NCBI GenBank assembly: GCA_020073085.1
Contig: JAIQFV010000007.1
Span: 120,375 to 184,374 of the forward strand
DNA length: 64,000 nucleotides
Direction of reading: 5' to 3'
From: Terriglobia bacterium
GTDB taxonomy: Bacteria; Acidobacteriota; Terriglobia; JAIQFV01
Translations under genes and position numbers: made by a program
Shown: piece after piece, positions 4,292-63,493 of the stretch
Position numbering within the stretch: the first letter of the stretch is position 1
Layout: each line of letters opens with the position of its first letter
The notes under the pieces: generated by a model
Database searches by the model: none
What the model saw: only the letters and a program-made list of their open reading frames with translations
Told to the model about the DNA's origin: nothing

Positions 4292-4927
4292 ATGAACCTT
4301 CCTATTGCACTAACACTCTCGCGAATTTTTCTGGTCCCCGTCGTGGTGGTGGTATTGCTCTCCAGCCGATTCCCGATCTTTCCGGACCTGTACGCCCAGT
4401 ATCAGGAGTTCATCGCGGTCACGCTTTTTCTGGCGGCGGCCATTACCGATTCTCTCGACGGCTATTTTGCGCGGAAGCGGGGCCAAGTCACGACGCTGGG
4501 AATTCTTCTCGATCCCATTGCGGACAAACTCCTGATCTCCGCCGCCCTCATCTCCCTGGTGAAGACGGTCCCGTGGGTCCCCGCCTGGTTGGTGGTATTG
4601 ATTATCGGTCGTGAATTTGTCGTGTCCGGCCTTAGGAACATCGCCTCCGCGGAAGGGTTCACGATTGATGCGTCGGAATTGGGGAAGATCAAAATGATCC
4701 TCCAGGTGATCGCGATTACGCTGATCATCATCGGGAGCAAGCACAAGAACTTTGAGCTGTTGGGACGGGTGGCGCTCTATCTGGTGGGGTTCTTTGCCGT
4801 GGTTTCCGCGGTCCAGTATTTCCGCCGGTTCTGGGGCAAAGTGGACAGCAGTATCAAGGAGCGTCAGCGTCGTCGCCGCTCGATCCTGCTTCGCCGAAAG
4901 ATGAGACGGGATGTGGAAGTTAAGTAA
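4292..4927 (+). CDS. pgsA: CDP-diacylglycerol--glycerol-3-phosphate 3-phosphatidyltransferase
   Basis: CDP-alcohol phosphatidyltransferase motif DSLDGYFARKRGQVTTLGILLDPIADKLL. The protein is multi-TM. Confidence 0.9.
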   Translation: MNLPIALTLSRIFLVPVVVVVLLSSRFPIFPDLYAQYQEFIAVTLFLAAAITDSLDGYFARKRGQVTTLGILLDPIADKLLISAALISLVKTVPWVPAWLVVLIIGREFVVSGLRNIASAEGFTIDASELGKIKMILQVIAITLIIIGSKHKNFELLGRVALYLVGFFAVVSAVQYFRRFWGKVDSSIKERQRRRRSILLRRKMRRDVEVK

Positions 4928-5471
4928 CGAAGATCAGGCTTTTCTGCTCAGGCTCGCGCGGAAGACGATTTCCGACCATCTTCACAATCAGCCCCTGTCC
5001 CCTCCCGAACCGCTCCCCGTCGGTCCCCTGCTCGAGAAGTGTGGTGCCTTTGTGACCCTGACCCAGCATAACGAGCTCCGCGGGTGCATCGGTTACACCG
5101 CTGCTCTGAAACCGCTCTTCGAGACGGTCATGGATTGTGCCATTTCCGCAGCCACCCGTGATCCGCGGTTCGTCCCGTTGAAGGCGGAGGACCTTGCGCG
5201 CACCCACATTGAGATTTCAGTGCTTTCACCCATGTTTGAGGTCAAGGACGTGAATGAAATTGAGGCGGGAAAGCACGGTCTTATGATTTCACGAGGCAAC
5301 CGGCGGGGCCTGCTCCTCCCGCAGGTCGCTACTGAATACAACCTCAACCGGGAGAAATTCCTGGACCAGACTTGCATGAAAGCAGGACTGCCTCCGAAGT
5401 CCTGGAAGGAGCCCGGGACACGCATCGAGGCGTTCACCGCGTTCGTATTCGGTGAACCCGGAATAGAATAA
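4911..5471 (+). CDS. AMMECR1 domain protein
   Basis: Contains the LRGCIGY motif and DPRFVPL. The ATG at 4911 overlaps the pgsA end by 17 nt. Confidence 0.85.
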   Translation: MWKLSNEDQAFLLRLARKTISDHLHNQPLSPPEPLPVGPLLEKCGAFVTLTQHNELRGCIGYTAALKPLFETVMDCAISAATRDPRFVPLKAEDLARTHIEISVLSPMFEVKDVNEIEAGKHGLMISRGNRRGLLLPQVATEYNLNREKFLDQTCMKAGLPPKSWKEPGTRIEAFTAFVFGEPGIE

Positions 5472-19075: not shown

Positions 19076-20173
19076 GTGGACAACGGGTCGGAAAGGAAGC
19101 CTGGTGTGATGGCCGCGGTTGAAGCGCGATGGTGGACCCCTCTCAACGACCATAAGGTCGTCTGCACCTTGTGTCCCCGCTCCTGCAAGATCGGGGACAA
19201 TCAAGCCGGTTTTTGCTACATCCGCCGGAACGAAGGAGGGAGACTGCTCACCCTCGGCTATGGTCAACCCGCTGCGATCCATGTGGATCCAATTGAGAAG
19301 AAGCCCCTTAATCACTTCTTGCCCGGGACCCAGATCTTCTCCATGGGAACGGCGGGGTGTAACATGGGATGCTTTTTTTGCCAGAATTGGAATATCTCAA
19401 AAGCCAGATCCGACCAGGTGAACTCCTCCCTGCTGTCCGCGGAGGCCGTCGTGGAGTCCGCCCTGTACAGCGGCTGTTCATCCCTCGCGTTTACTTACAA
19501 CGAACCGACCATCTGGGCGGAGTATGTGATTGACATCGCCAAGGTCGCGCGCGAGCATGGCTTGAAAACAGTGATGGTGACCAATGGATACATCTCGCCC
19601 GAGGCGTTTGACGAGGTTTACCAGTGGATCGATGCGGCCAATGTGGACTTGAAAGCCTTCACAGAGCATTTTTACTCCCATCTCACCCTGACGCATCTCA
19701 ACCCCGTCCTGGAGACCCTGAAGCGGTTGAAACAGGACACATCGGTGTGGTTCGAGATCACCAACCTCATGATTCCCACGCTCAATGATTCTGAGGATGA
19801 AACGAAGAAGCTGGCAGACTGGATTCTGGAGAACCTGGGCGACCATGTGCCGCTGCATTTCACCGCATTCCATCCGGACTTCAAGCTGCGGGACAGACCC
19901 CGAACCCCTCATAGCACGCTCCATCGCGCCCGCCACCTGGCGATGGAGCGGGGGATGAAGTTCGTGTACGAGGGCAACGTCATGTGCGAGGAATCTCACA
20001 CTACGTATTGCCCACATTGTCGGAAGGCCTTGATTCGGCGCTCGTGGCACGATCTGAAGGCGTATGAGCTGACCCCTGAAGGGGCCTGCCGATACTGTGG
20101 GACCCAGATCCCCGGTCATTTCTCTCGAATCACAAGAGCGAGGAGGGCGACTTCTCGATTTGATGTCCAGTAA
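19076..20173 (+). CDS. AmmeMemoRadiSam-system radical SAM enzyme (PFL-activase-like)
   Basis: CNMGCFFC (CX3CX2C) plus an N-terminal Cys cluster (CTLCPRSCKI...FCYIR). GTG start at 19076, with an alternative ATG at 19109. Confidence 0.85.
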   Translation: MDNGSERKPGVMAAVEARWWTPLNDHKVVCTLCPRSCKIGDNQAGFCYIRRNEGGRLLTLGYGQPAAIHVDPIEKKPLNHFLPGTQIFSMGTAGCNMGCFFCQNWNISKARSDQVNSSLLSAEAVVESALYSGCSSLAFTYNEPTIWAEYVIDIAKVAREHGLKTVMVTNGYISPEAFDEVYQWIDAANVDLKAFTEHFYSHLTLTHLNPVLETLKRLKQDTSVWFEITNLMIPTLNDSEDETKKLADWILENLGDHVPLHFTAFHPDFKLRDRPRTPHSTLHRARHLAMERGMKFVYEGNVMCEESHTTYCPHCRKALIRRSWHDLKAYELTPEGACRYCGTQIPGHFSRITRARRATSRFDVQ

Positions 20174-32792: not shown

Positions 32793-33455
32793 ATGTCGAT
32801 GTTAGGTGAGAAGGAACGGGGAATCGTAAGCGAGCAATTTCAAAAGCTCGAGAGCCCTGTGAAGTTGATTCATTTTACCCAGGGCTTGATGTGTGATACA
32901 TGCCCCGAGACCCAGCGGCTCCTTGAAGAAGTAGCATCGCTGTCCGACAAAATCACCCTTGAAGTGCATAACTATGCGATTGAAGGAGATTTGGCGGCGC
33001 AGTATCGGGTGGCCCGTGTCCCTGCGACCGTAGTTCAGACGGAGAAGGATTTTGGAATCCGGCTCTACGGGATGCCTTCGGGTTACGAATTCGTCTCGCT
33101 ACTGAATGCTATCCTGGCCGTATCTCGCTCCACAACCGATTTGACAGAGGAATCCAGGATCCAGCTCCAGTCCATTACCGCTCCCACGCACATTCAGGTG
33201 TTTGTTACGCCCACTTGACCGTACTGCCCCGCGGCCGTGAAGCTCGCGCATGAAATGGCTATCGAGAACGATTTCATCACCTCAGACATGGTGGAAGTGA
33301 ACGAATATCCGGATCTGGTCCGCAGGTATCAGGTTCGAGGAGTTCCAAAAACCGTGGTGAACGATACCGTTGAGTTTGTTGGCGCTCTTCCGGAAGCGGA
33401 GTTTGTCGCGCAGGTCTTGAAGGGCATATCCCCCACCAGCTTGGAAATCAGGTAG
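32793..33455 (+). CDS. Two-domain glutaredoxin-like protein disulfide oxidoreductase, predicted selenoprotein (Sec at TGA 33216..33218)
   Basis: ORFs 32793..33218 and 33237..33455 are in the same frame. Readthrough gives VFVTPT-U-PYCPRAVKLAHEMAIEN, so TGA sits where PDO-type proteins carry the first Cys of CPYC. The first domain keeps CDTC. A hairpin follows the TGA. Confidence 0.8.
33230..33248 (+). promoter_or_regulatory. Candidate SECIS hairpin
   Basis: CGCGG (33230..33234) pairs with UCGCG (33244..33248), including one G-U pair. The loop is CCGUGAAGC. The stem starts 11 nt after the UGA. Confidence 0.5.
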
Positions 33456-55860: not shown

Positions 55861-56412
55861 ATGGCAACAATAACAACGCAAGAAAAGAAAATCGTGCCCG
55901 CAGGAAATCCGTTTGTCGAGCAAAACACGGAGTTTGGGGCCGGGGTGGTCACCACTTCGTTTGACAAGGTGGTCAATTGGGCGCGCAAGTCCTCCATTTG
56001 GCCGATGACTTTCGGCCTGGCCTGTTGTGCAATCGAAATGATGGCGATGGGCGCATCCCGTTATGACATTGCACGATTTGGCGCCGAGGTCTTTCGCGGC
56101 TCACCACGACAATCGGACCTGATGATCGTGGCCGGCCGGGTCTCAAAGAAAATGGCACCGATCGTGCGCCAGCTGTATGATCAAATGCCGGAGCCCAAGT
56201 GGGTCATCTCCATGGGAGTGTGCGCCACAGCGGGCGGCATCTTCAACAATTACGCCATCGTGCAGGGAGTCAACCAGGTAGTGCCAGTGGATGTGTATAT
56301 CCCCGGCTGTCCTCCACGACCTGAACAGCTTATTTATGGCATCATGAAGTTGCAGGAAAAGATCGATCGCCAGCGAGGAAGCTTCAAAGGGGTTCTTCCT
56401 TTTGGGCAGTGA
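55861..56412 (+). CDS. nuoB: NADH-quinone oxidoreductase subunit B (NuoB-like, orphan)
   Basis: [18 protein letters not shown] and IPGCPPRPE are the N2 cluster ligand motifs. No nuoA or nuoC flanks it. Confidence 0.85.
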
Positions 56413-56521
56413 GCCCCTCAGTTGATTGCTCAGGCCGTAGGCGCCGCGGCGACTCCTCGTTTATGGCTGCTCTCCCTTGTCCGATCTTAAGTAGAATCCC
56501 TCCTTCCGATCGATTCCCATC

Positions 56522-56530
56522 TGTTATAAT
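56522..56530 (+). promoter_or_regulatory. Candidate extended -10 promoter (TGtTATAAT) for the Bcp-type selenoprotein gene
   Basis: TGTTATAAT lies at 56522..56530. An AGGAGG RBS lies at about 56576, ahead of the ATG at 56589. Confidence 0.4.
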
Positions 56531-56588
56531 CCGTTCGCGTTCTCACTACCATTTCCAGTTCTGACCAGAAAACCCAGGAGGGATTTCT

Positions 56589-57026
56589 ATGCTGTCACCC
56601 GGAGAGAAGGCACCTGACTTCACTGTGAAGACCCATGAGGGAAAAGAAGTTTCGTTGAGCCAGTTTGGGGGGAGCAAAGTGGTCCTGTGGTTCTACCCCA
56701 AGGCGGACACCCCCGGTTGAACCAACGAAGGCAAAGGATTCCGTGACCGAATCCGAGAGTACGAAGCAAAAAACGTGAAGATCCTTGGCATCAGCTTTGA
56801 TACGGTCGAAGAGAACGCTGCATTTGCCAGGAAGTTTCAGTTTCCGTTCCCCCTCTTGTGTGACACTGACCGCAAGATCGGCCTGGCGTATGGAGCTTGC
56901 GAATCGCCCCAGGATGTATACGCCAAGCGGATTAGTTACGTGATCGGCGAAGATGGGAAAATTCTTCTGGCCTATCCGAAGGTCGATGCCGCGCGCCATC
57001 CCCAGGAAGTGCTGGAGAAGGTCTAG
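56589..57026 (+). CDS. Bcp/PrxQ-type peroxiredoxin, predicted selenoprotein (Sec at TGA 56718..56720)
   Basis: The ATG at 56589 gives MLSPGEKAPDFTVKTHEGKEVSLSQFGGSKVVLWFYPKADTPG-U-TNEGKGFRD, in frame with ORF 56775..57026. The TGA aligns with the peroxidatic Cys of the FYPKxxTPGCT motif. A hairpin follows. Confidence 0.85.
56736..56754 (+). promoter_or_regulatory. Candidate SECIS hairpin
   Basis: GGAUUC (56736..56741) pairs perfectly with GAAUCC (56749..56754). The loop is CGUGACC. The stem starts 15 nt after the UGA. Confidence 0.55.
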
Positions 57027-57871
57027 TAGAATACCTTTTCGAGGAACAAACCGAACGGGGGCGCTGTCCATTCGGCCGGCTTTGGAGAGGGTTTGTAGAA
57101 GAAAGAACTGAATTCATCCCGGGTGCAATTCCCTGCCCCCAATTCCACCATGCTTCCGACCAGGCGCCGGACCATTTTCCACAGAAATCGATCGGCACGG
57201 ATGTGAAAGGTCAATAGCCGGGCGTAACAGGGCCGCGTAATGCGGATTTCCCGCCATTCACACTCTTCCACAATACATTGGAAGGAACGTTCTTCCTCCT
57301 CATCCGGATCACAAAAAGAGCGGAAACTGTGTCTCCCGACGACAAGTCTTGCGGCCTCCTGGAGGAGGGGGAGTTTGATCTCGCGCCTCGGGCACCAGAC
57401 GTGACGCCGCAGGAAGGGCGAGTAAGTTTCAACGATCTGATAGCGGTAGCTGCGGGAGTGCGCATCATGGCGGGCATGAAAATTCAGAGGAACGAAAGCG
57501 GCCTGAGAGACCGTCAGGTCAGCAGAGAGTCCGTTGTTCAGCTCCCGCATGATCTTCTCCGCTGACCACAGGCGCGGATCTTCCGCGTGATCCCCTGCAT
57601 GAAAGGGGGCTTTCAAAAGCGGGATATCGCGGGAGGCGGTCCTGTCCACCGGAGGATCCCCGTGGATGACCGCATTCACAACCTGCGCCTCGGCGTGAAC
57701 CCCGCGGTCGGTACGTCCCGCCGCAATGATCCGCGGCTTTTCTTTCAGGACATCAATCATTGCCGACAGCAATTGGCCCTGGACCGTGCGAACGTCCTTC
57801 TGGATCTGCCAACCATAGAACCGCGTGCCTTCATAGGCGATCGTGAGCTTCAGGTTTCTCATTGCATGCAA
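57023..57871 (-). CDS. truA: tRNA pseudouridine(38-40) synthase
   Basis: AAGRTDRGVHAEAQV catalytic Asp motif. Its stop overlaps the stop of the convergent peroxiredoxin gene. Confidence 0.9.
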   Translation of the reverse strand: MHAMRNLKLTIAYEGTRFYGWQIQKDVRTVQGQLLSAMIDVLKEKPRIIAAGRTDRGVHAEAQVVNAVIHGDPPVDRTASRDIPLLKAPFHAGDHAEDPRLWSAEKIMRELNNGLSADLTVSQAAFVPLNFHARHDAHSRSYRYQIVETYSPFLRRHVWCPRREIKLPLLQEAARLVVGRHSFRSFCDPDEEEERSFQCIVEECEWREIRITRPCYARLLTFHIRADRFLWKMVRRLVGSMVELGAGNCTRDEFSSFFYKPSPKPAEWTAPPFGLFLEKVFY

Positions 57872-62917: not shown

Positions 62918-63493
62918 TCAAGGAAACTTCGTCACGGCATCCACGACCTGCTGATCCGGCAACAGCTTCCCTTCCACGTTTTCCCAGAGGATTTTCCCGT
63001 CTGTCCCCACTAGAAAGTAAGTCCTCTTGGCCACCACCGAATGGATGCCCGGGACGTTGACTTCCAGTTCAATGTGATAGTCCTTGATCACCTTGCGTTC
63101 CATATCACTCAGCAAGGGAAAAGGCAGACTGAGGCTTGCCTTGAATTTATCCTGGGAAAAGGGCGTATCGGTGCTGATTCCCCACACTTCGATGTTCTTG
63201 GCCTTTAACTTTTCATAGTTCTCTCTGAACCCAGAGAGCTCGGTCGTTCAACCGCCGGTGAAATCGAAAACATAGAAGGCCAAAAGGACCTTTTTCTTGC
63301 CGCGCATGTCACTCAATTTCATTGGAGCGAGTTTGGGTCCCGAGGGGAGGGTAAAGTCCGGAGCTGTGTCCCCCACCTTGGGGGGTTGCACCCCGGCACC
63401 CGCGGGAGGAGAGGTACTTTGAGCTGTCAAGGAAACTGTGCCCATGAGCAGTAGCGCCACAAAAAGGGACAGAACAAGAAACGTTTTATTCAT
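62918..63493 (-). CDS. Signal-peptide-bearing AhpC/TSA-family peroxiredoxin, predicted selenoprotein (Sec at TGA 63248..63250)
   Basis: The ATG at 63493 gives MNKTFLVLSLFVALLLMGTVSLTAQ...KKKVLLAFYVFDFTGG-U-TTELSGFRENYEKLKAKNIEVWGISTD, in frame with ORF 62918..63187. The TGA aligns with the peroxidatic Cys. A near-ideal hairpin follows. Confidence 0.85.
63221..63238 (-). promoter_or_regulatory. Candidate SECIS hairpin
   Basis: On the minus strand, CUCUCUG-GGUU-CAGAGAG forms a perfect 7-bp stem with a GGUU loop. The stem starts 9 nt after the UGA. Confidence 0.65.

Follow-up and report, generated by a model that had tools for sequence, protein, structure and literature searches.

We analysed a window of 64,000 nucleotides from a Terriglobia bacterium (contig JAIQFV010000007.1), that is, the whole stretch of DNA given above. 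On its forward strand, a 145-codon frame for an AhpC/TSA peroxiredoxin runs from an ATG at 56589 to a TAG at 57024-57026, and the sole interruption in its translation is a TGA at 56718-56720. The gene, the signals around it and its convergent neighbour are as follows.

56522..56530, + strand: putative promoter TGTTATAAT, a perfect extended -10 consensus (TGnTATAAT) 58 nt 5' of the ATG, matched by eye
56576..56581, + strand: Shine-Dalgarno sequence AGGAGG, 7 nt 5' of the ATG
56589..57026, + strand: peroxiredoxin coding sequence, 145 residues, with codon 44 as candidate selenocysteine (Sec) codon (translation, Pfam, alignment of homologues)
56718..56720, + strand: in-frame TGA, proposed Sec codon at the peroxidatic Cys position (translation, alignment, independent assemblies)
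56736..56754, + strand: candidate SECIS hairpin, 'helix A', with a 6-bp stem GGAUUC/GAAUCC and loop CGUGACC, starting 15 nt after the UGA (folding)
57023..57871, - strand: convergent truA (pseudouridine synthase), given as context (ORF list; Pfam PseudoU_synth_1 on the called gene)

The original prediction had started the gene at an unlisted ATG at 56589 with AGGAGG ahead of it, and both are in place. A 43-codon ORF opens there and closes at the TGA, and the same frame passes through the listed ORF 56775..57026, so the predicted joining of the two across 56718..56720 is exact in its coordinates. Gene callers break the Bcp-type gene into these two ORFs, of 43 aa and 83 aa. At the 3' end, the stop of truA (57023-57025, minus strand) and the stop of the peroxiredoxin gene share 2 nt, and the overlap of the two stop codons is thus borne out. 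The claim that the gene has an extended -10 promoter of its own fared less evenly. The TGnTATAAT match is perfect and suggests a putative promoter for the Bcp-type gene, but there is no usable -35 for TGTTATAAT, and a sigma-70 scan of 56380-57150 returned no -35/-10 pair.

Read through the TGA, the product has a complete AhpC/TSA domain; its Pfam score (AhpC-TSA, PF00578; E = 3e-36, residues 4-125 of 145) is 124.4 bits, above the gathering score of 26. At E ≤ 1e-10, a protein search retrieved 4737 homologues; the best of them have 145-148 residues, begin with the same MLxxG and share about 65% identity with the window protein. Among solved structures, the 11 top-scoring PDB entries were named Bcp, AhpC-TSA or Prx-like, and 14 of the 18 entries listed belonged to the Bcp/PrxQ class. 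The best solved relatives were the Bcp/PrxQ structures 3DRN (E = 2e-21), which we take to be Sulfolobus Bcp1, 5ENU, and 5IIZ, presumably, like 3GKK, the Bcp/PrxQ of Xanthomonas campestris. The best NCBIfam scores were 104.9 bits for Bcp (NF006960, cut-off 140) and 94.2 bits for PrxQ (NF053650, cut-off 260). Judged by these comparisons, the window protein is Bcp-like and no equivalog of Bcp.

When the read-through product was aligned with 14 Cys homologues, the TGA fell exactly on the column of the peroxidatic Cys, which is invariant in all 14. P37, T41 and R114 are invariant as well, which gives the window protein the active-site motif P37-x3-T41-x2-U44, plus R114. This alignment to Cys homologues, which had been suggested as a check, supports the predicted exchange of the peroxidatic Cys codon for TGA. 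Residue 49, five positions after the TGA, is Lys, and the protein thus lacks the usual resolving Cys of the CxxxxC type, as the sequence TNEGK had already indicated. The subfamily has two further Cys residues outside the active site, namely C91, in an LLCDT motif, which is invariant, and C104, which is nearly so.

Conservation does not end at the TGA. Mean identity to the aligned homologues was 68% upstream of it and 61% downstream (residues 45-145), which argues that the same protein-level constraint acts on the part behind the TGA. This bears on the simplest rival reading, a pseudogene in which a nonsense mutation changed TGC or TGT to TGA in a Cys-type Bcp, so that only a 43-residue fragment is made. 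A single base change is enough to turn a Cys codon into TGA. However, the stop would have had to fall on exactly the catalytic codon, one of 145, and to leave all 101 downstream codons intact and 61% identical to those of functional homologues.

Other readings dispense with Sec by doubting either the base or the code: the TGA could be a sequencing or assembly error, or the organism could use a non-standard code with UGA as a sense codon, for Trp or Gly. The sources are metagenome assemblies, and the interpretation hangs on a single base. In the assembly collection, 14 contigs encode the product of nuoB, the adjacent gene. In all four contigs that were read, which come from metagenome assemblies of different ENA samples and are 99.8-100% identical to the window, codon 44 is TGA. 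The same TGA in four independent assemblies argues against a sequencing error, a possibility that the original prediction had itself raised and that was not upheld. Nor does the code appear to be altered. TGA is the commonest stop in the window and closes 35 of its 66 predicted genes at normal lengths, among them ABC ATPases and nuoB directly upstream, which indicates that UGA normally terminates translation in this organism; moreover, the homologues have Cys, not Trp or Gly, in the aligned column. We therefore regard error and recoding alike as scarcely credible.

Two more redox genes in the window have a TGA at a catalytic Cys.

32793..33455, + strand: protein disulfide oxidoreductase (PDO), a homologue of the AhpF N-terminal domain (translation; NCBIfam TIGR02187)
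62918..63493, - strand: peroxiredoxin with an N-terminal signal peptide (translation; Pfam AhpC-TSA, 116 bits)

The PDO scored 264.7 bits with NCBIfam TIGR02187 'PDO_seleno_TRX' (cut-off 185), and its TGA (33216-33218) replaces the first Cys of the second CxxC to give U-P-Y-C. Homologues of the AhpF N-terminal domain, to which the PDO belongs, are a listed selenoprotein family (PMC1794560, PMC13188914). In the secreted peroxiredoxin, which gene callers split into ORFs of 81 aa and 89 aa, the TGA (63248-63250) lies within F-T-G-G-U-T-T-E, at the peroxidatic position. Each of the two genes has a hairpin with GU in the apical loop. That of the PDO (33230-33248) folds with the loop CGUGAA and a bulged U at 33244, and that of the secreted peroxiredoxin (63221-63238, CUCUCUG-GGUU-CAGAGAG) has a strong 7-bp stem 9 nt past the UGA. 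The PDO and the secreted peroxiredoxin are, by sequence, candidates for the second and third selenoproteins of the window. For the pseudogene reading, the same coincidence would then have to occur in all three genes, and we estimate from the gene lengths that three random nonsense hits on catalytic Cys codons have a probability of about 1e-7. With UGA at the catalytic Cys of two redox genes besides the Bcp-type one, this organism most plausibly uses selenocysteine and probably has several Sec-dependent thiol oxidoreductases.

The arrangement recurs widely. We scanned 185,579 genomes, one per species, for the pattern FYPKxxTPG followed by TGA, and at least 120 species genomes matched. Among the matches listed, with the window included, 119 of 121 have at least 90 in-frame codons of homologous peroxiredoxin past the TGA, and the frame in those 119 continues for 94-247 codons, nearly always 95-116. 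The original prediction had asked whether close relatives keep the stop and lose coding conservation behind it; these counts speak against that. The two exceptions are L056, which stops early, and L072, in which the gene is cut by the end of the locus. The hosts among the matches listed are mostly metagenome-assembled genomes (MAGs) of Acidobacteriota, Binatia, delta-proteobacteria/Myxococcota, Planctomycetota, Acidimicrobiales, Neomarinimicrobiota, Gemmatimonadota and Eremiobacterota; the few isolates among them are Effusibacillus consociatus, Clostridium argentinense and a Myxococcus sp. The closest Sec-type relatives among the matches listed are Acidobacteriota MAGs (Marinacidobacterales, Thermoanaerobaculia and Polarisedimenticolia), and identity to the window gene reaches 74% over the part that was compared. 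No synteny with the window (nuoB and truA as neighbours) is shared at the loci of the Sec-type relatives among the matches listed, so orthology rests on the sequence of the gene itself.

Only two of the genes listed look damaged. L056, from an Acidobacteriota MAG, has a second TGA 18 codons on and appears broken, and L109, a Rokubacteria MAG gene counted among the 119, loses homology about 50 codons past the TGA through an apparent frameshift. Two others sit under unexpected names: the Sec-type Bcp genes of L044 (labelled a Klebsiella pneumoniae MAG) and L046 (labelled Patescibacteria) are near-identical to genes of Binatia, delta-proteobacterial or Acidobacteriota MAGs, and their contigs are probably mis-binned.

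The predicted 6-bp hairpin, with its GU-containing loop, is present 15 nt past the UGA. It has a folding energy of -6.6 kcal/mol and is the centroid structure predicted for the 48 nt that follow the UGA. Its stability is unexceptional, since 76 of 200 dinucleotide shuffles folded equally well or better, and 43% of synonymous-codon permutations of the gene were at least as stable. Rfam returned no match, either for the whole window at gathering thresholds or for 56560-57060 at E ≤ 10; we know of no Rfam model for bacterial SECIS elements of the Prx selenoprotein family, and the blank result is therefore uninformative.

Across the family, the region behind the UGA is more strongly structured. 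A 40-nt folding profile of 114 Sec-type genes among the matches listed has a single deep trough, with a mean of -12.3 kcal/mol, in windows starting from -6 to +12 relative to the UGA. The same windows in 110 Cys-type genes average -8.5 kcal/mol (p = 7e-12), and the z-score from synonymous permutation is -1.23 for the Sec-type genes among the matches listed versus -0.33 for the Cys-type genes (p = 2e-12). These 110 Cys-type Bcp genes came from a metagenome pattern scan and include no member of the LLCD subfamily, to which the window gene belongs, so the comparison is confounded by subfamily and by GC content.

The hairpins occur in two registers, here called helix A and helix B and numbered with the U of the UGA as the reference. 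In helix B, base pairs between positions 13-20 and 24-31 enclose a GUU loop; the helix lies within the codons of residues +4 to +9, and it or a bulged variant is found in most GFRD-type members among the matches listed. Its pair 17:27 covaries (GC 35, CG 6, GU 6 and AU 5 among the matches listed) and joins the second base of codon +5 to the synonymous third base of an Arg codon. Helix A, the register of the window gene, begins 6 nt further 3' and pairs 19-24 with 32-37. It is fully paired in 12 of the 119 Sec-type genes among the matches listed, with double changes at five of the six pairs; the alignment was chosen for pairing, so that its 98.7% of paired cells is circular and only the compensatory changes carry weight. 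Helix A, helix B or bulged helix B was present in every one of the 58 Sec-type genes with a GFRD motif among the matches listed.

For a matched control, DNA was taken from the eight Cys-type homologues that are closest. Helix A is fully paired in two of them (L247 and L249) and helix B in two others (L253 and L254); in L249, the helix-A stem is compensated (GGGGCUC/GAGCCCC) despite a changed peptide. Within the LLCD subfamily, mean folding energy was -11.1 kcal/mol for these eight Cys-type genes versus -12.8 kcal/mol for 35 Sec-type genes among the matches listed (p = 0.21), which takes away most of the energy difference, and one or the other hairpin was present in 4 of 8 versus 34 of 35 (Fisher p = 0.003). 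We had considered helix A as specific to Sec forms, and dropped this idea because the matched control has both helices in Cys-type genes. With the same helices in four of the eight closest Cys-type genes, the hairpin is no proof of Sec decoding: it is compatible with a SECIS element and rightly placed, but is not diagnostic alone. The window hairpin is, furthermore, weaker than that of any other of the 35 subfamily members among the matches listed (-6.6 kcal/mol versus a mean of -12.8 kcal/mol).

Why Cys-type neighbours should carry such hairpins can be read in more than one way. Sequence comparison suggests that they may reflect recent switching between Sec and Cys in the clade, and such switching has been described for Prx (PMC1794560). 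They could also be a by-product of the codons for EG(C)GFRD. A stronger proposal is that the post-UGA hairpins of this subfamily are something beyond passive SECIS elements, pointing either to frequent recent interconversion of Sec and Cys or to a hairpin function independent of Sec; we regard this as rather unlikely. If interconversion were the correct explanation, the weak hairpin of the window would be the sign of a gene passing between the two states or of a less demanding SelB.

No selA, selB, selD or tRNA-Sec turned up in the window or its 10-kb flanks, in all about 82 kb of the 221-kb contig. The search for sel genes used NCBIfam on 20 of the window's larger genes and Pfam labels for the 10 kb past each end. 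ARAGORN found no tRNA gene in the window and no tRNA-Sec at the 120 Sec-type loci among the matches listed or at L241-L246. As a result for about 82 kb of one genome, the missing sel genes are uninformative and do not count as negative evidence. Two other observations concern these surroundings. About 9 kb past the secreted peroxiredoxin, outside the window (L246, 19401-20390), lies a gene for a 329-residue Pyr_redox_2 protein, a pyridine nucleotide-disulfide oxidoreductase of thioredoxin reductase-like size near the selenoprotein genes, which could be part of a reducing pathway. AmmeMemoRadiSam protein A (4911-5471, + strand) and its radical SAM enzyme (19076-20173, + strand) are 14 kb apart and thus non-adjacent.

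The empty 82 kb and the weak, non-significant local hairpin are what a pseudogene might also look like, and a few relatives do look broken after the TGA (L056 with its early stop, the frameshifted L109). Against this stand at least 119 genes of many phyla with the same arrangement, in addition to the position of the stop and the intact downstream codons, and we consider it very improbable that the window gene is a nonsense mutant. A subtler alternative is a relic: the lineage once decoded UGA as Sec, its machinery has been or is being lost, and the gene is silent or poorly expressed. The weakest hairpin of the subfamily among the matches listed would suit this, as would the persistence of the same helices in the closest Cys-type homologues, which suggests recent switching between Sec and Cys, and the lack of Sec machinery observed in about 82 kb. 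A decaying system, however, is not what the three separate UGA-containing genes resemble, as all are intact; the sequence is identical across several samples and has no frameshifts or extra stops, and a relic is accordingly quite unlikely. We conclude that the UGA at 56718-56720 very probably encodes selenocysteine in one 145-residue peroxiredoxin of Bcp/PrxQ type, and does not separate two fragments. The central claim of the original prediction, a Bcp/PrxQ peroxiredoxin with UGA-encoded selenocysteine, is thus supported by the alignment, by conservation downstream, by recurrence in other genomes and by independent assemblies.

If this selenoprotein is made as in the established bacterial Sec pathway, an mRNA hairpin shortly behind the UGA, here the 6-bp stem-loop at 56736-56754, would recruit SelB with its bound Sec-tRNA(Sec), and Sec would be put in at the UGA instead of termination. 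Peroxide would then oxidise U44 to a selenenic acid, with T41 and R114 as the likely activating residues. With Lys in the +5 place of the usual resolving Cys, recycling would have to pass through another thiol, for which C91 of LLCDT, C104 and an external thioredoxin-like or PDO-like reductant are candidates.

Loss of the resolving Cys is not peculiar to the window gene. The +5 Cys is kept in 45 of 119 Sec-type genes among the matches listed versus 70 of 111 Cys-type loci (Fisher p = 2e-4), a comparison of different collections (L001-L120 plus the window for the Sec-type genes, and the Cys-type loci among L121-L240) whose members are phylogenetically non-independent. Ser and Arg are the usual +5 replacements in Sec-type genes; their codons are one base from UGC, and pairing in the helix with the GUU loop is kept.

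Peroxiredoxins with a TxxU motif (COG1225) are an established bacterial selenoprotein family (PMC1088965, PMC1794560, PMC13188914), defined by comparative genomics (PMC1088965, Tables 1 and 3; PMC1794560, Table 1). Several independent Cys-to-Sec conversions are listed for Prx, and Acidobacteria are listed as holders of selenoproteins (PMC1794560, Tables 1 and 2); in a 2026 review, the motif is given as PxxxTxxU (PMC13188914). The window gene shares with this family the AhpC/TSA fold, a probable Sec in the peroxidatic place (T41-P-G-U44 in the window), widespread Cys homologues and, as far as shape and position go, a candidate stem-loop directly after the UGA with G in a small apical loop, and the family occurs in delta-proteobacteria, Acidobacteria, Actinobacteria and marine metagenomes. 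None of its differences is one of principle: the window gene lacks the +5 resolving Cys, uses the rarer and weaker of the two hairpin registers of its subfamily, and does not appear as a single annotated gene in any of the assemblies in which it occurs.

PrxU of Eubacterium acidaminophilum (Sohling et al. 2001, cited in PMC13188914), named in that review as the peroxiredoxin with experimentally reported Sec, likewise has this residue at its peroxidatic site. Its Prx subfamily is another one (NCBIfam NF040737 'peroxi_PrxU'), whereas the window protein is Bcp-like and has 145 residues; assignment of the window protein to PrxU was rejected, since it scored 45.9 bits on a 233-position model whose cut-off is 270. 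With the Cys-type Bcp/PrxQ proteins (E. coli Bcp, NF006960; 3DRN; 5IIZ/3GKK), the window protein shares the PxxxTxxC architecture and the conserved Arg. In contrast to these, it has a probable Sec for the peroxidatic Cys and no resolving Cys of the CxxxxC type, and where they have LLSD, its subfamily has the invariant Cys of LLCDT (C91).

Read as a selenoprotein gene, the window gene is a mis-annotated new member of a family that has been known for about 20 years. Sec-type Bcp genes in at least 120 species genomes from many phyla, most of them uncultured, extend the range of this family and leave its concept unchanged. The frequent loss of the +5 Cys in Sec-type members and the SECIS-like helices in the nearest Cys-type genes bear on the exchange of Sec and Cys, and neither is surprising. 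The main consequence is one of annotation. All three UGA-containing redox genes are called as pairs of short ORFs in every assembly that carries them, and the antioxidant and selenium biology of this organism is thereby invisible to automated annotation.
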